Shown here: piece by piece, positions 931 to 63,302 of the stretch | Layout of the letters: every line of letters begins with the position of its first letter | Position numbering within the stretch: the first letter of the stretch is position 1 | Assembly (NCBI GenBank): GCA_000091205.1 | Contig: AP006500.2 | Strand: one strand, 5' to 3' | DNA length: 64,000 nt | From: Cyanidioschyzon merolae | Lineage: Eukaryota | Position numbers and translations under genes: made by a program | The notes under the pieces: generated by a model | What the model saw: only the letters and a program-made list of their open reading frames with translations | Databases searched by the model: none | What the model was told of the DNA's origin: nothing

Positions 931-3900
931 CTAGTGCAGACGAGCCAAATCATCCACGAGGAGTTTGATATGCTCGATGGATGCACCGACCTGGGCGGCC
1001 ACGAATTCCATTTCAGTGGGTTCAAGTTCCCGAAACCGCTCCACCAGATCTCCGTCCACGAATCCTCGTCGCGGTAAGTCGAAACAGGTCATGCTATGCA
1101 AGCTATTGAGGGCGCGCTCAGAAAGCGGTGTGCGCCAGTCGGCGTGCGCAAAACCCTCGACACCAAGCCGGATACTGGTGAGCGGTGAACGACGCACCCG
1201 CTCGTGGCCGTTGTCCGCAGCACCCGCTTCAGCAGGATGATCCGTCAGCGAGCGCAACGCTTTCTCCACCCGCGACAGCATACGATGTTGTGCTGGGTCC
1301 AGCGGCACGATGATGCCGATCGCTCCAGCGGTCGTTGCGAACAGCAGCGTCTGACGGCTGACGTTGTCGGCAGTCGTGGTGCCTGTCGATGCTCGCGCGA
1401 CATCCCTGGTGCTCTCGGTATCGATGGTGCTGTGACCGTTTCCAGTGCCGGCCTCTTCATTTCCAGAGGCCTCTGTGACCAGTTTTCCCCGCCGAAAGAC
1501 GTTCACCAGATCACCGAGATGGAAAGCACCCGCACGATTGAGTGCGTGGCGGAATTCCGATCGCGTTTCGTGCGGATTCCGCTGCAACGACAGCAAATTG
1601 TACGAGTTATCGGCCGCAAGGTACGTGTCCTCGTTCAGGAACGCACAAGCCGTTATCCACGCGGTCTCGTAGTCCCATGCCACCGCTTTGAGACACGGCG
1701 AGGCGCCATCGGAAGTTTCGCCTTCGGGCAGCACCAGCTGTAGCACACAGAGCGATTTCATGAGGTCTCCAACGAGAAGCTGGTCGCCGCGTGCTTCGAG
1801 GCGCAGCACGAGTACGTGCCCCAGATGGCGAGCAACTTCACGCAGTTCGTAGTCGTCGCCGTGACCCGACTGACCCCAATCGTAGAGGATCACGACGTTG
1901 TTCACGCCGGCGGCAAGGAACCGGGCAGCACTCGCCGGAAACCGACACGTGCGATCACTGGGATCCGCCAGGGCGCTCATGGTGTAGACGGCACCTGGCG
2001 TGTACAGCTCGTTCAGTAAGAGCAATTCCTCTCGACTGAATACGAGTATTCTTCCGCGGGATGGTTCCATTTCTGAAGGCAGCACATACGCAGTACCGAC
2101 GACAAAGACATCGCGTTCGGGAATCGCCACCAGACTCAGGCCGTGCTCGTTCATCGCCAAATCGTGACTGGTGATCGTCTCGAGCGTTTCGTCGTTCAGC
2201 AGACGTACATGGTGTCGTTCCTCCCCGAAAACTATCGACACGGTTAGCAGGCAGATATAGCCACGAAGGTGGGCAATGCGACGCGGTTGCTCGCGAAGAT
2301 CGTGGCGACGAATGTGCAGCTGTTGGATGTGCTCAATCCCGCCGAGTGCAAGGCCCTGCTCCGTCGCCACAGCGATCGAGTCCGGAAAACCCTTCGTGTG
2401 AAAGCGAACCGCCCGGGTGACGTCACGAAGGTTCACATTCCCACAGAATAGGGTACCGTGGTGCGCGTGGATCACAGATGCGCGTCCACATGCGGCAAAA
2501 ACGTAGCGCATTCCGTGAAGCTGCAGATTATTCAGTGCTGCAGGACGCGAACCGAGCCGTAGTTGCCGCGGATGTTGGAGTTGCAGTTCGCACTTGCTGA
2601 GATCTTCTGGCTCGGGCCCACTGCGTTTCGCATCTGGCTGTGAAACGTTAAACGCGAAGAGCCGACCATCGCCGACGGCGACGAGCAGGCACAAATGGGC
2701 TCTGCCGCCGTGGTCGGCCATCAGGCCGCCATGATCATCCAAGTAAGTCAGAAGCACCGACCTGGGGACCGACGTTGACGGCAACGCACTTTCTCGTATG
2801 CATTCCAGTTCCCAGCGATTCCCCGTGTCCTCATGGAGCCGGAACAGCCGTATTCGAGACTCTGCCCAGGTACCGAGCGCAACGATTCCGTAAGCGGCGT
2901 GTATGCAAGCGACCTCAGCCGGAAGCGTCTGGCTGCCGACTGGCACAAGGGATGTCTTCCGCTGCTGGAGAACATAGAGCTGCGCATTACTAGTTGACAC
3001 GAGAACAAGCTTATGCAACTCATCAAAAACTGCATTGGTAATTTGCTCTGATGAGGGAGGGGTCCACGCCACGGCAGGTCGCTCCAGGAGCGTCAAATCA
3101 ACGAGCCCGACATACGATGCGGTCACCCAGAGTGCAAGCTGTTCAGCTGGCAAGCGCATCGCTAGGATTGTAGCCTCATCCACAGCCAGCGATTCCACTT
3201 CAACGAGCTCATCGTGTGCTGCGAGACGAAGGACTCGTGTTTCTGCTGTGAAGGACACAACCAGAAATTCATCCCACTCGGGTGAGGTTAGTGAAGGCAG
3301 CGTGAACAGCGCCTTGATGCCATCGAGCTCCACGGCGGCATGCTCAACAAAGCCGATCCCATTTCGGATGATTCGCAATGAGCCCATTCGAGAAACTCCC
3401 GAGCATGTGATGATGTGCCCGTCGCTAAAGGAATCATCACCGGTGACGAGTAGATCTTGGATAGGACCGATGTTTGTGTAGCACTGCACCACTTGTCCGA
3501 ACCAGAGCTGACACTCGGCTCTCTCGGCTCGGGATTCCCTGCGCTCATGGCTTGATGCCGATGCAGTGGCGAATAGCGTCGTTTGCACGAGCTCAGGTGA
3601 CTCAGTCTGCGACGGCAGCAGTCGAACAAGTTGGGAGTCACCTAATGCCGAGCCGACGAAGACCAAATCACTCCCCAGGTAAGCAATCGCGCTTGCCACG
3701 CTGCTCTCGCAAACACACTCGAGGCGCATGCCCACTTCAGCACCAACTGAGAGAACATACAGAAATCCATCCCGATCGCCCAGCAAGTAGTGGGCGTGGT
3801 AGCCGGCAGCCGCAAGCATCTCAAGCCCTGTTTCGAAGTGGTCTTGTCTGTTTGCCTCTACCGATGCAGACTTGCTGCTGCCGCCAATGCCGCTTATAGG

Positions 3901-5049
3901 ACAAAAACAACGCATCGGTGCGAACTGACCGCCGTGGAAATGGATTACTTGCTTTGCGACGCCGCTGCGGCCGGGGTGGAGTGCCAGGGACGTGTCACAG
4001 GCAACCACGAATCCCCCGCAGGCGCCGTCGTTTGCTGAATCGTTCGGTGCTGGCGGCACTGGAATAATCAGCTCGGCCGAGGCATCCAAATATTGCTGTG
4101 CAATGGGTCCCTCTCTGACATCCTGCCGACCAAGAAGAATTTCATATGAGACCAGATGGCGATTATGAAGATAATCCGTGTGGATTATGGCGAGCGTTGG
4201 ATGCTCCGTCCCGATAAGGAACTCCATGCTCTGGACCTGCACAACGTCGAGCCGAACCTCAAAGGCCTCACCCATGAGGCTGCCCGGTACTACTTTCAAA
4301 AGGCCGTCATAGGCATAGACGGCTAGGCATCGCGCGCTGGGATCAAGCGCCACAAACTCACCAAGCGGGCATCGCCGGCCGAGTTTAGACGCGAGCGACC
4401 CCGCAACGAGTGTCGCCACTCCCTGCAATCTCGTGTCATACTTGATCACGGCAAAGTCCAAACGTTCCGTCAATATGAAGACAGCGTCCGTGCTCTGGTC
4501 TCCAGCATCGGACGGTAGCACCTGTACAGTGCGTGCTGTTTCCGGTACGGGTTTTAAGGGTGCTTCCACTTTGTGCCGTGAGCTTGTTCGAGCACGCTTC
4601 GAACCACTTCGCGGGGTACCCCCGTGCAGATTCAAACTGCTGAGACGCTCGGAGGGTTGCAACGCACCCACCGGGCTCGCGACCCTTGTTCCCCGAGCAG
4701 TCGCACGCTCGCACAGTCCGACACCGGGCAGTACCTCGAGTGCCGCTATTCTGCCAAAGACCGGTAAGTTCGCGTACGCGACTAACGCGCTCTCATGCGA
4801 CTTTGTGCTATCGGTAGAGACTTCATACACTTCGATTCTGTTTAAACGCACCAGAAGCACACTGGGCTGGTCGGGGGAGATGAAGCGCGCAACGCGCGCG
4901 TGCGTCACGATCGACGGTTGCGCAGCAGTAACCACGTAGAGTCCACATCCAATCGACTCTTCAAGCGGGAGTTGAGCGCTTTCCTCGATTGCTGGAGCAC
5001 CTGCTACGGACTCGCTCACACTAACAGGCTCCAGGCTGTCCGTGGACAT
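931..5049 (-). CDS. DDB1: DNA damage-binding protein 1 (DDB1 / CPSF_A family three-propeller scaffold), 1372 aa
   Basis: Single uninterrupted ORF. Motifs match DDB1: YLGSDLVFVGSALGDSQLVRL, YTNIGPIQDL...ITCSGVSRMGSLRIIRNGIGFVEHAAVELDGIKALF, and C-terminal GFVDGDLVERF...IKLLVDDLARLH (compare human ...GFIDGDLIESF...IKVVEELTRIH). Confidence 0.8.
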   Translation of the reverse strand: MSTDSLEPVSVSESVAGAPAIEESAQLPLEESIGCGLYVVTAAQPSIVTHARVARFISPDQPSVLLVRLNRIEVYEVSTDSTKSHESALVAYANLPVFGRIAALEVLPGVGLCERATARGTRVASPVGALQPSERLSSLNLHGGTPRSGSKRARTSSRHKVEAPLKPVPETARTVQVLPSDAGDQSTDAVFILTERLDFAVIKYDTRLQGVATLVAGSLASKLGRRCPLGEFVALDPSARCLAVYAYDGLLKVVPGSLMGEAFEVRLDVVQVQSMEFLIGTEHPTLAIIHTDYLHNRHLVSYEILLGRQDVREGPIAQQYLDASAELIIPVPPAPNDSANDGACGGFVVACDTSLALHPGRSGVAKQVIHFHGGQFAPMRCFCPISGIGGSSKSASVEANRQDHFETGLEMLAAAGYHAHYLLGDRDGFLYVLSVGAEVGMRLECVCESSVASAIAYLGSDLVFVGSALGDSQLVRLLPSQTESPELVQTTLFATASASSHERRESRAERAECQLWFGQVVQCYTNIGPIQDLLVTGDDSFSDGHIITCSGVSRMGSLRIIRNGIGFVEHAAVELDGIKALFTLPSLTSPEWDEFLVVSFTAETRVLRLAAHDELVEVESLAVDEATILAMRLPAEQLALWVTASYVGLVDLTLLERPAVAWTPPSSEQITNAVFDELHKLVLVSTSNAQLYVLQQRKTSLVPVGSQTLPAEVACIHAAYGIVALGTWAESRIRLFRLHEDTGNRWELECIRESALPSTSVPRSVLLTYLDDHGGLMADHGGRAHLCLLVAVGDGRLFAFNVSQPDAKRSGPEPEDLSKCELQLQHPRQLRLGSRPAALNNLQLHGMRYVFAACGRASVIHAHHGTLFCGNVNLRDVTRAVRFHTKGFPDSIAVATEQGLALGGIEHIQQLHIRRHDLREQPRRIAHLRGYICLLTVSIVFGEERHHVRLLNDETLETITSHDLAMNEHGLSLVAIPERDVFVVGTAYVLPSEMEPSRGRILVFSREELLLLNELYTPGAVYTMSALADPSDRTCRFPASAARFLAAGVNNVVILYDWGQSGHGDDYELREVARHLGHVLVLRLEARGDQLLVGDLMKSLCVLQLVLPEGETSDGASPCLKAVAWDYETAWITACAFLNEDTYLAADNSYNLLSLQRNPHETRSEFRHALNRAGAFHLGDLVNVFRRGKLVTEASGNEEAGTGNGHSTIDTESTRDVARASTGTTTADNVSRQTLLFATTAGAIGIIVPLDPAQHRMLSRVEKALRSLTDHPAEAGAADNGHERVRRSPLTSIRLGVEGFAHADWRTPLSERALNSLHSMTCFDLPRRGFVDGDLVERFRELEPTEMEFVAAQVGASIEHIKLLVDDLARLH

Positions 5050-5149
5050 GCTTCAGCTACGCTTTTTCAGCAGCGCCTAGGCACGGGTAGCGTACAACGT
5101 GGCGCCAACGACGTTGATGCGTGCGTGTTTTGCGCGCACGCACGCATCC

Positions 5150-6950
5150 GGCGGTGCGTGCGCGCGGCAATTCTGTATAAGGATGCGCTGAGGACGGAGC
5201 GTGCCTCATTGAATGAGGCCTGGACGGACCACTGGACAGAGCTGCATGAAAACGTAACTGGGCACTGCCAAGACCGAATCTATTGGCAACAGTATGCTGC
5301 AGAACTACCGCGCCTCGAACCGGTACCGGAATGGAACGACCCAATCTTCTGGCCTGAATCTGTTCGGACCCTGCTATGCGCAAGCAACCGCAAAACACCT
5401 GGCATCGGCGGTATCCCTGCGGAGAGGATGAAACTGGCGACCCCAAAAGACGGGACAACAGGGACACCATCGATACCAGATGAACCTGACACAACGTTAG
5501 GTAAACGCCTTGTGGAGCTCATCCAACGCATGTTCGAAGAGGCGTACATCCCGGATGTATGGAGGACTGTCGAGGTCGTACCGATCCTCAAAAAGGACTC
5601 TGACATACACACACACACAGACATGAACAGACATGAATATCTACCGGACTATGCGCCTCATCCCGTAAATCATGAAGCTACTTTGCGCCATTCCCAAGAA
5701 ACGGACTCAGATAGGCCTCGTGGAACGCAAGTTCTTCGCCCCAGAACAGGCTGGATTCCGGAGCCACGAGGAGTGCATGAGCCATGCCCTGACCCTAGCT
5801 GAAGTGGTGCAACGTCGCTCCATTAGCGGCCAACAACCAATTTACGTATGCTTCATCGATTTCCAAAAGGTTTTTGACACGGCCCCGCATGAGGCTCTCT
5901 TTTTGAATATGGAACGAGCCGGAGTCTCCGGAAAGTGCCTAGCGTTCTTCCGTGCGCTCTATGTAGACTCATGGATGCACATCCGACTGGGCGACGGCTC
6001 AAGAATCCTTTCGATAAGGATCTGCCATGGACTGCGACAGAGCGACCCCACATCCCCGCTCCTTTTCAATATCTTCATCAACGATCTGCTGAACAACTGC
6101 AGGCAATACGGGCTTGAGGTGCCGTGGATAGACTGTGGAGAGCCCGGTGAAGAGCGCCCACATGGGAACCGCCTCGCAGGCCGTCTATTTGCGGACGATG
6201 TCGTGCTGTTGGCACCCGCCCCGGAAACGCTTGCTGCTAGCATGCAACAAGTCAGCGCCTGGGCCGATCGCTGGGAGATGAGCATAGGAGCATCGAAGTG
6301 CGGCGTCATGGTCATCCATGGAGACTCGCAGCGCATTCGCAGTCGCTCGTGGCGGTTGCAGAATCAGGAAATTCCGATCGTGGAAAAATATCGCTACCTG
6401 GGGGTCTGTCTCACGCCGACGCTCGACGAAAAGGCACACGTTGACGAGATGATCGCCAAGATGCATAGAGGTACAGCGATCGCACGCCCATTCCCATCCG
6501 ACCCCTCTATCTGCATAGCAATCCGTACGAGGGCACTAAGGATGTGTATCATCCAGCCTGCGACCTGGGGTACTGAATGGTGCGGCATGAAGCACCCAAA
6601 TGTCTCGCGTCTGCAGACAGCCGCCAACAGGGCAATGCGACTCGTTGGTGTTGGATGCTCAATGTAGAGCAGAGCAACCACCGCGCTGGCACTCGGACTT
6701 GAACTCCAAATACCCTCGACAGAAGCGATAGCAGCAGGCTGCCGGGCATGTATACGGGCCAAAGGGCCCACCATGTACACCTGGTTCAGTCGGAGTTTCA
6801 TGAAGACCCCAACCCACCGCAAGAACACTTGGATGAAATCGACGCAGATTTGGGTGAAGCGCCTCTTGGGCGAAAACACGCTCCCCAATCGTTCCCCAGA
6901 AATATAGAAGGCTCCCGCCGCCTCAAACGCACGGTTCATGAAACAGTATG
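5150..6950 (+). mobile_element. Degenerate non-LTR (LINE-like) retrotransposon fragment: reverse-transcriptase domain, 5'-truncated and frameshifted
   Basis: RT N-terminal motifs in frame 1 (TPGIGGIPAERMK..., IPDVWRTVEVVPILKK). Core RT in frame 2 (ORF 5672-6667): FIDFQKVFDTAPHEAL, SDPTSPLLFNIFINDL, FADDVVLLAP. The frame switch coincides with a (CA)n run at about 5597-5612. No endonuclease or complete ORF. Confidence 0.75.
5672..6667 (+). pseudogene. Reverse transcriptase (RVT_1-like) ORF fragment of the LINE remnant
   Basis: Contains RT motifs A (F-DF-KVFD), B (SPLLFNIF) and C (FADDVVL). Lacks the N-terminus in frame and has no downstream thumb or zinc-finger region. Confidence 0.7.
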
Positions 6951-8066
6951 GTAACGCTGAAGTCGAAATATTCGCATCGGAGACGTTGATCGGACGTAGC
7001 ATACGCATTAGAATCTAGAGTATACATACATGTACTGGTGGGCGGCACTGGAATCCCCGGAGCTTGCTCGACGAGCTCATAGGATCGCAACAATGCGCGT
7101 TGGTGTACTCTGACTGACCTCGGCTCTATGCTGCATCGGAACACGGGACGCATCCTGGGAATCACACTTTCACTCTTTTGGGATTGTGAATCATGAAACT
7201 CTGACACACTTGTTCATAAGATGTGCGCGTTGACAACAGGAATGCAGATACCTTTTTTAAAGACAGCGGCTTCTCTGTATTTCTATGGAGGAAGACCAGA
7301 GGTGGCTCGCAATTGCTGTAGCCCTCGCGATGAATTGGCCTCTAATCGAGCCACGGCGCTCACTGGCGGGTACCAAATGTACATGCCACCCTCTAAGCGG
7401 AAGGTCCTGCGAACGGGACCACAGCTCGGGTCCAGCGCTTGTGCAACTCCCCAGAGCAAGTTGCGGATCAAAGGCTTGCGTCGCGAAACGGCAACGCATT
7501 CTAGACACGAATACGAAGCGGAGACTCGGCCGCCAACATTCATCTCCACTGTCAACTTTCTCCGACGCGTTGTGCCGCGAAGACAGTCCTGTGTCAGCAG
7601 CCAGTTCCAGCACACATCCATGACGACACCCGACCCCGTACCAGGTGAACGATACCTCCAGCGTACATCCGCCACGGGATAGCAAAACAGTACAGTCTCC
7701 GAGCTGCACCCGCATCCACGCTACGAGCGCTATTGCGTACGCTGAACGGAGCCTCGACGCCGGGTGAAACGTTCAAAAACGCCCATCATCTCCGCTGCCA
7801 GGCATGCGACATGGAATTCGAAGACTGGTTAAACGATGGACGATTTCCAAATCCCTGATATCCAATGCACCTTTCGGTTTCATGGGTCCGTATGCATACA
7901 CACGCAAACAGAGCCTGAGGGATTGGGGGCAATCGTCGGGATTCGGCCGCCTCGCACCGGTCGGGTGTGCTGCGCAGCGGCGGCGACGCCACCCGGGGGA
8001 TACCTGCCACACTGGACACAGCACCAGACGAGTGTGCGGCGTTTCAGAGAGCCCGTGTTGCTGCTC

Positions 8067-9872
8067 ATGAGACACCGCCGACGAAAGTTGCCGGGTAGCG
8101 GACACCAAGCTGAACGCCGTGCACCTGGTCGGCTGCCGCGCTTCGTTGTCGACGCGGTAGCTGATGACGAGTCCATCGCATCATCTGAAGCAGAAGACGA
8201 AAACGCGGTGCTCGGGGAATCGGTTGCTCTCGACGGCCTAGAGAGCAAGAAGCTGCGCAGTTTAAGTGGTTTACGTGGAAGCTCTACAGCAGATCTCGAT
8301 CCGAGTCTCGAACAGGCAGCCGATGCCGAAAGCGCTTCCAGTTCTGAAGCGGAGGTAAGCGAGCAATCAAGACGTCTACACCTTGCAAAGGCGTACCTGG
8401 AGCGCATCGGAGCAGCAAGGTTTACTGAAGACGATCTGCACCAGAGAGCAGACGAAGACAGCCTCGAGGCACGAGATGCAACCGCTCTTGGTGACGCAAG
8501 CGACGATGACACTGACAGTGCGAGCGACGCGTGGAACGAGGTTCTCTATAGAGAGGCGCAGCAACTTCGCGGACAGTACTATGCTTCTGAAATGGCCTTC
8601 GATGATGTGGAATCCATGCTTCCTGCTGAACCTACGCTCACGGCTTTCGGTCACAAAAGGCCCCCGACCTGTATCACCTTTTTGCCCGACGGTGAGGTGC
8701 TCGGGCCTCCCCGATACGCCATCACTGGTGGAAAGGATGGAGCACTGCTTCTATGGGATATCGAGCGTGGTGCCAAAAGCATTGTCTCCGCAAGTGCGAC
8801 CTCTTCCGCCGGGTCCGCCGCAAAGCCCGAGATTCTCTGCGTCGCAGCGTCGCGTGACGGGCGGTTGGTCGCTTCCGGCAGCCGCGATGCATCCATTCGT
8901 ATCTATGATTTGCGACAGCGGAACATATCTGATGACTCTCCCTCGATACCTATCCTTTCGCTTGTACATGTCGCGCGGGGTCATCGGGGTGCCGTCAGCG
9001 GACTGGCCTTCTTTCGGGACGTTTTCCGGAAACATGCCGGACCGGGTGTTTCAATCGGCGTCGATCGCAACTCCACAGAAGAGAGTCTCTTCAGCGCCTC
9101 CTTCGATCGAACGCTTCGTTTCTGGAGCATAGAGCGTTCCAAAGCTGCACCGCAATCCATTCTGGATTCAGGCCCAGATGCCGAGGCCGGTCTGTACGAC
9201 GGCCGCAACATGTCCCCGTGGAGCGTGCACTACGTCGACAGCTACTACGGCCACGAAGAAGAGGCGACGAGTCTCTGCTGTGCGGCGTGGGGCAGGCTAT
9301 TATCTGGCGGCCGAGATCGCACCGTGCGTTCTTGGAAAGTCTACGATGATACCCAGCTTGTGTACAGAGCACCTCGAACTGCTGGTGCACAGATCGGTAC
9401 CAGCATAGACTGTGTTGCGTGGGTGAGCCCGACCACCTTCGTATCGGGTGCTGATGATGGATCGCTTTCACTCTGGTCTACAGCGAAGAAGAAACCGGTC
9501 CATAAGATTCTTGACGCCCATAAGAATCCCGTATGCCCGTGGATATGTTCGGTGGTGAGCCCTGAGGCCGCCAATCTGGTTTGCAGCGGCTCTGCGGACG
9601 GTTGCGTACGCCTCTGGCGTGTTCGTATGCAAGCATCTGTGAAAGCCAGCGCCAAGAGCGCGAAACGGCACGGGTCCTTACCAGAATCCCTTGAGGCGCT
9701 TGGGACGTTGCCATTCGCCGCCAGCGGGTTCTGTAATGGCATTGATTGTGTTCTTCAGAAGCGTACTCTTTACATTACAGCGGCTGTGGGTCAGGAACAT
9801 CGATTCGGTAAGTGGTACGTCGACCGAAGCCTTCGGAATGGACTCGCGTTCTGGCGGATACCGCTCGCATGA
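8067..9872 (+). CDS. RRP9: U3 snoRNP WD40 protein RRP9 / U3-55K
   Basis: Acidic N-terminal region followed by WD repeats (GGKDGALLLWDIERG, SGSRDASIRIYDL, SGSADGCVRLWRV). The C-terminal tail ...AAVGQEHRFGKWYV...WRIPLA matches human RRP9 ...AGVGQEHRLGRWWRI...IPLR. The ORF is open from 7836, but the conserved part starts near Met at 8067. Confidence 0.8.
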   Translation: MRHRRRKLPGSGHQAERRAPGRLPRFVVDAVADDESIASSEAEDENAVLGESVALDGLESKKLRSLSGLRGSSTADLDPSLEQAADAESASSSEAEVSEQSRRLHLAKAYLERIGAARFTEDDLHQRADEDSLEARDATALGDASDDDTDSASDAWNEVLYREAQQLRGQYYASEMAFDDVESMLPAEPTLTAFGHKRPPTCITFLPDGEVLGPPRYAITGGKDGALLLWDIERGAKSIVSASATSSAGSAAKPEILCVAASRDGRLVASGSRDASIRIYDLRQRNISDDSPSIPILSLVHVARGHRGAVSGLAFFRDVFRKHAGPGVSIGVDRNSTEESLFSASFDRTLRFWSIERSKAAPQSILDSGPDAEAGLYDGRNMSPWSVHYVDSYYGHEEEATSLCCAAWGRLLSGGRDRTVRSWKVYDDTQLVYRAPRTAGAQIGTSIDCVAWVSPTTFVSGADDGSLSLWSTAKKKPVHKILDAHKNPVCPWICSVVSPEAANLVCSGSADGCVRLWRVRMQASVKASAKSAKRHGSLPESLEALGTLPFAASGFCNGIDCVLQKRTLYITAAVGQEHRFGKWYVDRSLRNGLAFWRIPLA

Positions 9873-23195: not shown

Positions 23196-25484
23196 CTAGG
23201 GCGCATGACTTCCAGATACGTTCGTGGCTGCTGCAGCGGCAGCGGTCAGGTCGTCGAGAAACGCCTCGGGCGAGAGCATCTCGGTTGTTCCGTAGATAAT
23301 CTGGCGATCGTCGTGGATGCGAGTGGTGAGATTCTCCCACTCAATAAAATTGCCACCTCCGACCATAAAAACGATCGCTTCGGTAAACGATCCACGCGGC
23401 AGGGATGAGGCTTTGTTTGTGCAGTGCCCGTCTCGAGCAGCAAGTGGATCCAGCAGTAATGAGGCTGCACGTTCTGCAGCTGCACCTGGGTGCTCGTGTT
23501 CCGCGCCCCGCGAGGCCGAATCCAAGTCATCGTCGGGCGAGGCGTTCCGCATCCACGAGTCGACAATACTGGCAACGATTCCGCTCCGCGTCGTGGGAAT
23601 CAGGCCCTTCACGGTGCTCGCCAGCTGCGTCAGGCCTTTGTGGCCGTGCTCATAGATTCGAGTGACCAGCGACTCGAAGATTTCCCTGCCTCCACCTGTC
23701 GCTGTCGTGAGGCGATCGATCATGCGGCTGCTGCTTTTGCGTGCCGGCGACGGACTGTTGCCGTCCCTGTGCGTTGCAGCGGGGTCGAGCTGGCGCGGTG
23801 TCGCTGCGCGCTGGCGCATCACGTAGCTAAGAGCGCTCGTCTGACAGCCACAGATATCGAGTACATGACAGTATTCTGCGAGCTTGGTCTGCGGAATACC
23901 TGACGGCGAGAGGATCTGGTACATAAGCAGCAGCCGCAGGCAGTCGCGGGCTCGCTGACTCAACGACGAGGCGTCCGCGGAGGCCGTACTGGAAGGCGGT
24001 TTCGCTAGAAGATCGGCTTCCCCAATGATTCGGTCTAGCGAGTTCGATTGCACACTCGAAGGCCTTTCCAGCAGTGAATCCTCGAGCTGAAACAACAGGT
24101 CCAACTTCCGTGCCTTGATCTGCTCCAACAGTGCGGATGCGATGTTCGTATGCATATCGAGCTGCCGCTTCCATCGAGTTAGTCGCGGAAGCTCGGCGAC
24201 GGCGTCAGCAATCTCCCGAGTGCTTGTGCCGGTTGCCTGCATATAGGCCTCGAGCTGCGTCTCGTCTGCCGTCTCCGCGAGCAGCTTCTGGACATTGCTG
24301 CCTCCGCCAGACCGTGCATTGATCTCCTGAACCTGCGCACGGTACGCTGTCAACGCTGTTTCGATATGCTCCGCCACTTGCGGGAACGGCAACGAAGCAT
24401 TTTCGGCCCAGAACGGATCGGCCTCGTCATCGAGGTCGTACTGCGTCCGCTCTGTGCCGGGCTTGGTTGCCGGCATGCTGACTCGGCTGAGCTCGAATGG
24501 CAAGAGCTCGTGGATTAGCGCCTCATAGGTCCATCCGTGGTGCAGCATGATGGCCAGGTCGACGTCACGGTCGAGCAGCGCCAGCAGCGGCCTTCGCAGT
24601 GGCGGCAGGCCGGCTTCACTGTGTTCGCGGAACAACGCCGCCCCGCCTGGCGTATGCATATACTCCCAGATTTTGGCGCACAGTTGCAGTGCGACTCGCT
24701 CCGATGCGCCGCGTCGCAGGCAACGTATATACGGCACACATCTTAGGGTCACGCAAACAGCAAATAAACTATCCACAATAGTCGCGATCGTTTCCTGAAT
24801 CGCCTGCTCATCGGCCTGTGCACTGAACAGACGCCGGAAAGAGCGCCGCGCTATGCTTGGCGGCATGCTGAAGAGGTTGCGCTTCAGACAAACAAAGCCG
24901 CAGTACAGGTCCACGACGCGAGTAACGGACTCGATGCGCCGAGCTCGAGCCAGGGCCTCGGCCAGACGCTCAAGCTCGTCGCGGCTGATAGCCGAAAGAA
25001 AATATATACTGCAGTGTGCGTATCGATCCGCAGCACAGTCTCGGACAATCGTCTGAATATTCTCGTGATTCGGCTGGATCAGGTAGACAGCTGGGACCTC
25101 GGGTATGACTTGGCGCGAGCTCTCTAAGTTCAGGTGTAACGTAACGCCGCACGTTCGTAGTGTTGGCACCTTCAGCACAGGAGCAAGCACCTCGCGCGCC
25201 GTTTGGTCGATGACGAGCACCTTCCAAAAGTCTCTGTACACGTCTTCCGCGTCCAAGTCGTCCACGGTCGCCGCGGCAGCATCGTAACCGGGGTTCAGTT
25301 GTCCATGCAGTGCACCGTTGGCAGCGCTGTGTCCGGTAGCGGCCTCAGCGCCGCGGAGCGGGTTACCGAGCGCCTCGCACAGAACAGCTTTCTGCCGATC
25401 CCGCAGCGAGAACCACGTTTTCGCCAATGATTTGAGCTGCGTGGCGAGGTCCGAGTGACGACTCGGCTCTGCTCGCGTTAGCAT
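23196..25484 (-). CDS. SLY1: Sec1/Munc18-family protein Sly1 (ER-Golgi SNARE regulator)
   Basis: Sec1-family N-terminus WKVLVIDQTAREVLAPVLKVPTLRTCGVTLHLNL, C-terminus FMVGGGNFIEWENL. The ORF is open to 25808, but homology begins near Met at 25484. Confidence 0.8.
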   Translation of the reverse strand: MLTRAEPSRHSDLATQLKSLAKTWFSLRDRQKAVLCEALGNPLRGAEAATGHSAANGALHGQLNPGYDAAAATVDDLDAEDVYRDFWKVLVIDQTAREVLAPVLKVPTLRTCGVTLHLNLESSRQVIPEVPAVYLIQPNHENIQTIVRDCAADRYAHCSIYFLSAISRDELERLAEALARARRIESVTRVVDLYCGFVCLKRNLFSMPPSIARRSFRRLFSAQADEQAIQETIATIVDSLFAVCVTLRCVPYIRCLRRGASERVALQLCAKIWEYMHTPGGAALFREHSEAGLPPLRRPLLALLDRDVDLAIMLHHGWTYEALIHELLPFELSRVSMPATKPGTERTQYDLDDEADPFWAENASLPFPQVAEHIETALTAYRAQVQEINARSGGGSNVQKLLAETADETQLEAYMQATGTSTREIADAVAELPRLTRWKRQLDMHTNIASALLEQIKARKLDLLFQLEDSLLERPSSVQSNSLDRIIGEADLLAKPPSSTASADASSLSQRARDCLRLLLMYQILSPSGIPQTKLAEYCHVLDICGCQTSALSYVMRQRAATPRQLDPAATHRDGNSPSPARKSSSRMIDRLTTATGGGREIFESLVTRIYEHGHKGLTQLASTVKGLIPTTRSGIVASIVDSWMRNASPDDDLDSASRGAEHEHPGAAAERAASLLLDPLAARDGHCTNKASSLPRGSFTEAIVFMVGGGNFIEWENLTTRIHDDRQIIYGTTEMLSPEAFLDDLTAAAAAATNVSGSHAP

Positions 25485-26071
25485 CGTGGCCTCTTGAGGT
25501 TGACTACCAGCAGGTAGCAGGCAAGGAGGCAGCCGCCTGCCGTCAACGCCTCCATGAGTCTGTGCGTACGCTGGGATTGCTGCGGCGGCGATCCCGCCAC
25601 AGTCGAGAGCACCTGCTGCTCTCGGGAGCGACTCGACGTTCACGAGCAACAGGAAAGAAGCAGTCATCAGCGATATGATATATAGGACCTTGACAGCAGA
25701 GGAGCAATAAATATGAGCAGGCTTCTCGGTCTGTCTGGTCCCTGTCATCCATATATGGTGCTCCCGTAATGAATGAAGAGCGAGCAATCTGAACAGACTT
25801 TTCAGCATGTTCAGTCTCTTTCAATCATATAATGTGCTCCTATGGCGGATAGAGACCGTCCAATCTCATTAAACTTCTTTCGACGATCCGCTCCTGTCTG
25901 CAATGCAACGTGCTTGCCAAGGATCCGTTCTCGGGTGGTGCTTGTCGATCATTTGCACCGTATGGCGTACGAGACTCCATGCATCGAGGCCTGGACTTGC
26001 AGCACAGCTACATGAGCACATAGATACACGTCCATTGTGGAGGCGCAACTGCGGTTCGGTTCCGTCTCTGA

Positions 26072-61238: not shown

Positions 61239-63302
61239 TCAGATGCTTTTCTGGAGTCGCGGCTTGTTATAGAGCAGGAACACAAAGGCAATTGCACGAT
61301 ACGCTACATCAAGCATGATTAGAAAACCGATGTTTCCGCCGATACCAAATGAATTGATGTTGTACGTGACCAGTGGATTATTGGTATTCGAACGCGGAAT
61401 GTACCCGAATTCATTGTCCATGACAGCCGCGAATCCATAGTAGATAAACGACACAAAGCGAAGCCATCGCAACCACACGGGAATCACATCAGGGCCGATA
61501 AAGAAGCCGCCGAAAAGCAGCGACAGCACGATCAGTACCGGAGCGATTGCCGCTGCTGTTTGCGGGCTACTCGCTGAGGCGCTAGCCATAAGGGTCAGTG
61601 ATTCCGCGGTATGGGCCGTCAACAGCACAAGCACCACGAAGATGAAAAAAGAGGACGGATGCGGTTGCAAGCCTACCATCCAGTACGTGATGCAAGCGAA
61701 GAGAATAGCGAGCACCACCAATCGGGGAAGCTCGGCGACGCTCTTGGCGAGGAAGTAAGCACTTACGCGATAGAAACGCGATAAGCGCTCTCGCAAGACA
61801 ATACCCCGCTCAAGCGGGAACAAGAAAACAACGCCGAAAGACGCACCGAAAGCCTGATTGATAAGCAGGAAGAAAAGAACGCCGGGTACAGCGTTCAAGT
61901 CAGAGGAATTGCGTCCAGTGTTCAACCAGATCAAACCCAAAACGACTGAAAAGATGATCGTCTGAAAGAAGCGCGCAAAGTTCGTGCCCTTTTCGCGCAC
62001 CATGAGTTTGAAGGAGCGCTTCACCAGGAGCCCAAACTGTACCGGCCACGGTTCAGCGTAGTTCGGTTCGCCTTGGGACGAGAAGAGCGACACGCCCTTA
62101 CGCGTTACTTTGGTATGCAGGTCACCGATGGCGCCCAACGGATCATCCAGCGGCAGCGAGGCCTCCGACTTGTGTTCGAGAAAGCGATTGGCTAGGTAAC
62201 TGATTCGTGCCCGTGTCTGCTTCTCCAGTGTCTTGGAGCGCGCATTCAGAGAGATCAAATCCAGTGCAAAATCCGCTGGGTTAAAGTAGGCCGGACATGG
62301 ATACTTGAGCGCCGCGAAATACGGCACCATATCTTTCGCCGGACCAAAGTAGATTTGATGACCCTCGCTTAGCAGCAACAGGTAATCAAACATCTGGAAA
62401 ATCTGCGAACGTGGTTGATGAATGGTTGCAATGATCGTACGCCCGCGTCTCGCTAGCCGCAACATCGTGAGCATCACCGCCTGTGCCTGGAACGAGTCCA
62501 GGCCGGTGGTCGGCTCATCCAGGAGCAGTAGTGGCGGGTTCGTCACCAATTCTATACCGATGTTCACGCGCTTGCGTTCACCGCCACTGACACCTCGCTG
62601 TACAGCGTTCCCGATTAAAGTATTGGTGGCGTTTGCAAGGCCCAGCTCCGTGATCACCTGCTCCACGCGCCGCATCTTCTTCTCGATGGGCATCGAGGCG
62701 GGCAAACGACACTGCGCACTAAACTCGATCTGTTCACGTACGGTGAGGTCAGCAAACACGCGAGCGTCCTGCTCGACAAATCCCGTGTACCGGCGGAACA
62801 TGTTGACGTCGCGTTCGTGCCCGTTGATACGTAGCTCACCGCTAATTTCGTACTCACCAACAGGAATTCGACCTCCAAGCATCGACAAGAGGGCAGTCTT
62901 ACCCGCGCCACTACCCCCCATAATGGCGAGCACTTGACCCGGCCGCGCGTAACCAGTTATGCCTTTGAGAATGGGCTTTACCACAGTCTCCTTCGAGCGT
63001 TTAAACGGGCCACCTGTTTTGAGTCGTACCGACAAGCACAAGTCGTGCCAGTTCATCGAGAAGGTATGCTGCTGAATAAGCGAAACCTCGACGCTTTTTG
63101 ATTCCATTCTTTGTCCTTCAAAGAAGGAGCCTTGGCCTGCATCCGTGCTAAACTCGGCGAACTCATCGTCTACATGGGACTTGAGCGGGTCAAAGGGTAC
63201 GTAGCTATCTCTGTTGCCGGTAGCGTTTATCTCCTCATTCCGGTGCGCGGCAGTTGCGCCTGCTTCCTCGTCTCCAGTACCGTTTTCGTACACATCACCC
63301 AT
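61239..63302 (-). CDS. ABCG-family (White-type) half transporter, NBD-TMD order
   Basis: Walker A GGSGAGKTALLSMLGGR, ABC signature VSGGERKRVNIGIELV, Walker B LLLLDEPTTGLDS, followed by a hydrophobic six-helix region. 687 aa. Confidence 0.9.
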   Translation of the reverse strand: MGDVYENGTGDEEAGATAAHRNEEINATGNRDSYVPFDPLKSHVDDEFAEFSTDAGQGSFFEGQRMESKSVEVSLIQQHTFSMNWHDLCLSVRLKTGGPFKRSKETVVKPILKGITGYARPGQVLAIMGGSGAGKTALLSMLGGRIPVGEYEISGELRINGHERDVNMFRRYTGFVEQDARVFADLTVREQIEFSAQCRLPASMPIEKKMRRVEQVITELGLANATNTLIGNAVQRGVSGGERKRVNIGIELVTNPPLLLLDEPTTGLDSFQAQAVMLTMLRLARRGRTIIATIHQPRSQIFQMFDYLLLLSEGHQIYFGPAKDMVPYFAALKYPCPAYFNPADFALDLISLNARSKTLEKQTRARISYLANRFLEHKSEASLPLDDPLGAIGDLHTKVTRKGVSLFSSQGEPNYAEPWPVQFGLLVKRSFKLMVREKGTNFARFFQTIIFSVVLGLIWLNTGRNSSDLNAVPGVLFFLLINQAFGASFGVVFLFPLERGIVLRERLSRFYRVSAYFLAKSVAELPRLVVLAILFACITYWMVGLQPHPSSFFIFVVLVLLTAHTAESLTLMASASASSPQTAAAIAPVLIVLSLLFGGFFIGPDVIPVWLRWLRFVSFIYYGFAAVMDNEFGYIPRSNTNNPLVTYNINSFGIGGNIGFLIMLDVAYRAIAFVFLLYNKPRLQKSI

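Follow-up and report, generated by a model that had tools for sequence, protein, structure and literature searches.

A decayed, 5'-truncated non-LTR retroelement copy between the divergent DDB1 and RRP9 genes of Cyanidioschyzon merolae

On chromosome 18 of Cyanidioschyzon merolae 10D the genes DDB1 and RRP9 are divergent, with start codons 3017 bp apart, and a reverse transcriptase (RT) sequence lies between them. The locus raises the question of what this element is, how much of it is left and whether either gene draws its promoter from it; we analysed it in a 64-kb stretch of DNA, here called the window, in which eight large ORFs match 10D chromosome-18 proteins exactly. A preliminary description had recognised a decayed LINE-type remnant lodged in the promoter region of the two genes and had suggested that it might contribute promoter sequence to DDB1. 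We consider it highly probable that the plus-strand sequence from 5168 to ~7750 is a dead, 5'-truncated and 3'-eroded non-LTR copy that was inserted in a shared promoter of ~130-180 bp and has been carried passively since. The element as such is already known: the reference genome carries its ORF under the label 'retroelement', and the family to which it belongs was reported in 2007, at genome completion (PMC1955436). The earlier suggestions that the copy identifies a lineage or is out of the ordinary are therefore nothing new.

Extent and class of the element

The window copy was compared with more than 50 other copies of the family and with their majority consensus, which was mended at two consensus frameshifts to give a 1165-aa ORF. 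The following features were found in the copy:

5168..6937, plus strand: retroelement part A, the RT region, 5'-truncated (blastn against 50+ copies; ~94% identical to the family consensus)
5672..6667, plus strand: 331-aa RT ORF, BAM82485.1/XP_005538521.1, annotated 'retroelement' (exact match; Pfam RVT_1, E=7e-20)
5843-5890, plus strand: RT motif A, YVCFIDFQKVFD
6029-6091, plus strand: RT motif B, RQSDPTSPLLFNIF
6182-6217, plus strand: RT motif C (LFADDVVLL, FADD)
6938..7750, plus strand: retroelement part B, the C-terminal domain in decayed form and the first stretch of the 3' region (tblastn, sliding identity, blastn)
7156-7233, plus strand: remnant of a CCHC motif ('...ETLTHLFIRC'), within the C-terminal region 6938-7545
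7257..7715, minus strand: 'hypothetical protein CYME_CMR266C', BAM82486.1, 152 aa (exact match), wholly antisense in part B

The sliding identity of part A to the consensus was 92-98%, and in tblastn it matched residues 376-946 of the consensus protein at 84-88%. Homology to the other copies begins at 5168, and more than 50 of them continue upstream of the equivalent position; the window copy therefore lacks ~1.5 kb of the 4.28 kb unit at its 5' end, in agreement with the truncation noted earlier. Truncation at the 5' end is typical for LINE copies, and incomplete reverse transcription is its standard origin; the window copy would likewise have arisen by reverse transcription that stopped short.

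The 3' end had been placed at 6950 and the C-terminal domains had been taken to be lacking, and both points had to be revised. DNA homology to the family reaches ~7740-7750 (blastn extension 7633-7740), ~800 bp further, and part B is colinear with the family, with nucleotides ~56-66% identical, amino acids 45% identical and seven in-frame stops. The landmarks YWW.ALE.P.LAR, WESH and ETLTHLFIRC were recognisable in the last coding segment, so the C-terminal domain is present, though ruined. The 3' boundary itself is uncertain and may lie anywhere from ~7750 to ~7950: local alignment of 7741-8066 with the last 190 bp of the family was no better than with shuffled sequences. Homology is lost ~190 bp before the family end, and the window copy has no poly(A) tail. 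No target-site duplication was seen between the 5' and 3' flanks, where the longest shared word was 7 nt, and a repeat finder run on the flanks returned only pairs at chance level, with no long direct repeats flanking the element. Since neither a tail nor a target-site duplication was found, the mechanism of insertion is deduced from family membership, not from the junctions. The 64-kb window holds no second copy of the element.

The annotated gene CMR266C is probably a spurious call inside the dead element. No Pfam family was found in it, and among three orthologous metagenome copies it showed five distinct non-synonymous differences and no synonymous one.

The RT with motifs A-C that had been described is confirmed by the Pfam match, and its ORF is bounded by the in-frame stops TAA at 5666-5668 and TAG at 6665-6667. 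When the repaired family RT was compared with PDB sequences, human LINE-1 ORF2p (8sxt/8c8j) aligned over the fingers and palm of the RT and the conserved region upstream of it with E=1.8e-19, R2 followed at ~1e-18, a group II intron RT reached only 2.6e-4, and there was no match to telomerase. Because L1 ORF2p and R2 (~1e-19 in round terms) match far better than group II RTs and telomerase is absent, the RT is of the non-LTR type, and the relation to group II introns or telomerase that would have refuted the earlier LINE-type reading is not borne out. An RT of some other class, be it a group II intron, a telomerase/Penelope-like element or an LTR element, could be argued from the absence of the LINE markers endonuclease, poly(A) tail and target-site duplication. 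Such an origin is hardly credible, given the ranking of the PDB matches and the absence of long direct repeats around the element; moreover, the closest proteins from outside Cyanidioschyzon match the query along 95% of its length, up to a terminal CCHC motif typical of LINE ORF2, and the genome paper assigned all 26 elements to the non-LTR class (PMC1955436). As for the clade within the non-LTR elements, the family RT gives the structures of L1 and R2 equal, or nearly equal, scores. In the family consensus the RT is followed, as in L1-like ORF2, by a CCHC motif of the type C-x2-C-x9-H-x4-C, which is decayed in the window copy. We found no named clade for the C. merolae LINE in the literature.

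The retroelement family

The 26 class I elements of the genome were all found to be most similar to non-LTR retrotransposons (Nozaki 2007, PMC1955436). Our protein search returned relatives 80-87% identical to the window ORF, among them two 10D entries named 'retroelement, alive' (P0002, P0003; 83-85% identical at the amino-acid level), and, at ~33% identity, RT ORFs from a brown alga and gymnosperms. Together with the ~94% nucleotide identity of its RT region to the consensus, this places the window copy in the same class I family, of which its ORF is an annotated member. Matsuzaki 2004 is reportedly credited alongside Nozaki 2007 for the class I 'retroelement' family of C. merolae 10D.

In a scan of metagenomes we found 53 related loci. 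Pairwise blastn defined a family unit of ~4.28 kb (for example, L008 ~1855-6135), with the 5' ends of ~9 copies falling within 30 bp of each other. The shared 3' end of the family reads ...GTCAATGAAAAAAA and carries only a short A-run, and subfamily variation was seen in the 3' UTR.

The preliminary description had also pointed to a missing endonuclease, and Pfam indeed detected neither Exo_endo_phos nor any other nuclease family in the window ORFs. This is expected of a copy truncated at its 5' end. The family is another matter: on the repaired 1165-aa consensus Pfam found RVT_1 only, with no APE, REL or other nuclease; over its first ~240 aa the consensus is rich in lysine and shares nothing with those relatives that have an APE. 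Judged by these sequences, the absence of an endonuclease is a real gap in the family, unlike in the window copy, and a family unit that itself appears to be without endonuclease is new here.

The closest relatives outside Cyanidioschyzon are RT ORFs from Pylaiella littoralis, a brown alga (P0011), from gymnosperms and ferns (Taxus, Ginkgo, Adiantum) and from uncultured eukaryotes (such as P0013 and P0018). They are 29-34% identical to the family over ~650-750 aa, from the region before the RT through the RT to the CCHC motif. These relatives begin, however, with what are by eye C-terminal APE motifs (GDFN..., SDH), where the Cyanidioschyzon unit is lysine-rich instead. In its RT and CCHC regions the C. 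merolae family appears to work like an APE-type, L1-like LINE. It differs from APE-type non-LTR elements in that an APE was found neither in the window copy nor in the 4.28 kb consensus, and in that the A-run at the family 3' end is short and is missing from the window copy.

No intact copy was present among 56 related loci, and the longest stop-free RT stretch in them was 444 aa. In 15 of the 23 family copies compared, an additional T is inserted between RT motifs B and C (GGAGA[T]GCCC), at a site equivalent to 6140-6145 of the window. The 'retroelement, alive' proteins, 348 aa in length, end at this +1 T (...WIDCGDAR) and do not reach the catalytic FADD motif. Unlike the 15 copies, the 'alive' entries included, the window copy lacks the additional T, and it is in frame at this site.

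Two other repeat families were noticed during this work. A second, divergent non-LTR RT family was found on a Cyanidiales-like metagenome contig (L061, 8001-10480); its protein (P0008) is 51% identical at the amino-acid level, and its DNA ~67% identical, to the main family consensus. Another repeat family adjoins a retroelement copy in L019 (1000-3700, with an ORF at 2634-3578 on the plus strand), occurs again at 8078-8428 of the same locus on the minus strand, and is present in 7-12 of the fetched loci. Its 314-aa ORF, with the C-terminus ...NRDFHAAINIRR, looked TnpB/Fanzor-like by eye, but had no match in Pfam or PDB sequence searches. Bao & Jurka 2013 reportedly found ~150 copies of a Fanzor1 element, CMe-1A, in C. 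merolae.

Lesions and mosaic structure of the copy

The window copy covers residues 376-1165 of the consensus protein in three frame segments (tblastn), which are listed here with the sites of the frame changes:

5170-5634, frame 1: 84.5% amino-acid identity, no in-frame stops
5604..5637, plus strand: CA-rich tract containing (CA)6 (5608-5619), and then a 10-bp tandem duplication (TRF; family alignment)
5627-6898, frame 2: 87.5% amino-acid identity, two stops (TAA 5666, TAG 6665)
6865-7545, frame 1: 45% amino-acid identity, seven stops
6880..6907, plus strand: second frame change (2 to 1), in a run of C whose length differs between family copies

The reading frame switches from 1 to 2 between ~5601 and 5633, beside the (CA)6 run. 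The change of frame had been located exactly at the (CA)n microsatellite. It does adjoin that tract, but its cause is a perfect 10-bp tandem duplication of ACAGACATGA (x2.1, at 5617-5637), which accounts for the +1 shift. Compared with copies that are in frame here, the window copy is longer by 22 bases between 'KKDS' and 'DMNxYR'; 12 of these lie in the CA-rich tract and keep the frame, and 10 are the duplication. An orthologous copy from an environmental population ~99% identical to 10D (L057) has the duplication without the 12-bp expansion of the CA tract (5604-5621). The duplication is thus the older, frame-breaking lesion, and the length of the microsatellite is polymorphic. Across the family generally, the CA-rich tract is a hotspot of frameshifts.

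The lesion at the CA tract is not the only one, as had been thought. The second frame change falls at ~6880-6900, frame 2 is closed by a TAG stop at 6905-6907, and two frame changes and nine in-frame stops together disable the copy. Mending the frameshift did not give an intact element, and the copy has no uninterrupted ORF through the RT and the C-terminal domain, as an active, autonomous element would have. Its description as a decayed remnant is therefore upheld.

The two parts of the copy differ sharply from each other. From 5168 to ~6935 the copy is 92-98% identical to the consensus; within ~10 bp (~6936-6940) the identity drops to 45-78%, and it then stays near 60% to 7767, whereas other copies are 90-95% identical to the consensus over the same stretch; the last 0.8 kb of the window copy is ~60% identical to every other copy. 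Substitutions rise from 5.7% in part A to 38.5% in part B, and the ts/tv ratio is 1.57 in the former and 1.05 in the latter, a drop that saturation leads one to expect. The divergence between 10D and its orthologues is ~0.9% in both parts, which argues that the 3' part is old and not fast-mutating. The same equality speaks against hypermutation as the source of the divergence of part B, and the substitution spectrum was unbiased, with no editing-like pattern. Descent of part B from the second Cyanidiales RT family (P0008/L061) was also rejected, as the main consensus resembles that family more closely than part B does.

The copy is a mosaic, which is new here, and at ~6937 an old, long-dead 3' segment would be joined to a younger 5' segment. 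We loosely favour an in-register chimera of the two, produced by gene conversion or template switching. The conceptually translated part B had no match in the protein database, and nothing like it was present among the 56 sampled loci, so that the chimera has no second example. The mosaic might instead be the single insertion of a rare subfamily with a very different C-terminal and 3' module, in which case both halves would be of equal age. The 3' UTR variation within the family speaks for such a subfamily, as does the frequent swapping of 3' modules in LINE families, and we regard it as possible, although not probable: stops number 7 in 680 bp of part B against 2 in 1730 bp of part A, the ts/tv ratio of part B is near saturation, and the same lack of relatives among the loci and in the protein database that leaves the chimera without a parallel also counts against a subfamily. 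A stronger form of the chimera would have a younger cDNA or conversion tract pasted in register onto an older dead copy in the middle of the 130-180 bp promoter, by a lineage that persists partly through recombination and without endonuclease-driven insertion. This we judge to be unlikely, and less probable than the rare subfamily.

The DDB1/RRP9 promoter

The genes and the DNA on the two sides of the element are as follows:

931..5049, minus strand: DDB1, BAM82484.1, a UV-damaged DNA binding protein of 1372 aa (identical to that of C. merolae 10D; Pfam)
5050..5167, no strand: native DDB1 upstream DNA, 118 bp from the DDB1 ATG to the truncated 5' end of the element (onset of family homology at 5168)
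7751..8066, no strand: 316 bp 5' of RRP9, consisting of native promoter DNA, of the last ~190 bp of the element in unrecognisable form, or of both
8067..9872, plus strand: RRP9/U3-55K, BAM82487.1, 601 aa (exact protein match; closest PDB entry, U3 snoRNA-interacting protein 2/Rrp9)

The neighbours had been correctly named as DDB1 and RRP9, and the start of the element close to the DDB1 initiation codon was likewise borne out, at 118 bp from the ATG at 5049. Pfam found three RSE1/DDB1/CPSF1 domains (propellers) and CPSF_A in the DDB1 ORF, and BAM82487.1, a WD40 gene, is annotated 'similar to U3 snoRNP-associated 55-kDa protein RRP9'. An upstream in-frame ATG at 7836 would lengthen the RRP9 ORF to 678 aa and is used by some metagenome gene calls. 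We favour the start at 8067, given by the reference annotation (601 aa) and by orthologues of 606 and 555 aa. Rfam and tRNA scans of 4800-8300 gave no match.

Elsewhere in the window, two genes form 90%-identity clusters with paralogues on other 10D chromosomes: the SLY1 gene (23196-25808, minus strand; BAM82493.1) with BAM80650.1, and an ABCG2-like transporter gene (61239-63302, minus strand; BAM82508.1) with BAM83015.1. Both pairs hint at recent inter-chromosomal gene duplications.

In two related genera DDB1 and RRP9 are also arranged head-to-head and the element is absent from the spacer, which is 179 bp long in Cyanidiococcus yangmingshanensis (L059) and 130 bp in Cyanidium caldarium (L060). 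The flanking synteny is conserved, with COG2 in both relatives and Hsp33, an eIF-2B-alpha-like gene and Arp4 additionally in Cyanidiococcus. When the window flanks were compared with the short spacers of Cyanidiococcus and Cyanidium, no significant conservation emerged. As both genera keep the pair 130-179 bp apart without the element, an ancestral bidirectional promoter appears to have been split by the insertion in the Cyanidioschyzon lineage. This agrees with the earlier placement of the element in a divergent promoter region; the head-to-head pair in the relatives, and with it the apparent division of an ancestral promoter, is new here. Orthologous metagenome contigs that are 98.8-99.4% identical to the window span the DDB1-side junction (L057, L058) and the RRP9-side junction (L038, L046, L056), so the insertion is common to close environmental populations (~99% identical to 10D).

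The element would thus have entered the promoter in the same orientation as RRP9 and would have no function at present, with DDB1 presumably served by the 118 bp of native DNA that remain upstream of it. These 118 bp could contain a complete DDB1 promoter, because in the relatives both promoters and both 5' UTRs fit into 130-179 bp, and promoter donation by the element to DDB1, although possible, would not be required. Co-option would mean that the truncated 5' end supplies regulatory sequence to DDB1, or that the 3' part does so for RRP9. The distances allow it, as the DDB1 ATG is 118 bp from one end of the element and the RRP9 ATG at most 316 bp from the other, and the insertion has been retained in several environmental populations. 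Co-option nevertheless seems very unlikely to us, since all the promoter and 5' UTR space of the relatives is so short that 118 bp could suffice and the differences among the orthologous copies bear no sign of constraint.

A passively carried insertion of this kind means that a very short, conserved bidirectional promoter of DDB1 and RRP9 has been split naturally. Genes can be targeted precisely in C. merolae, which would allow a direct test of the minimal promoter on either side. For the family, the end of the 'alive' entries before the FADD motif, taken together with a unit that appears to have no endonuclease, suggests that the C. merolae genome may be without any autonomous retrotransposon.
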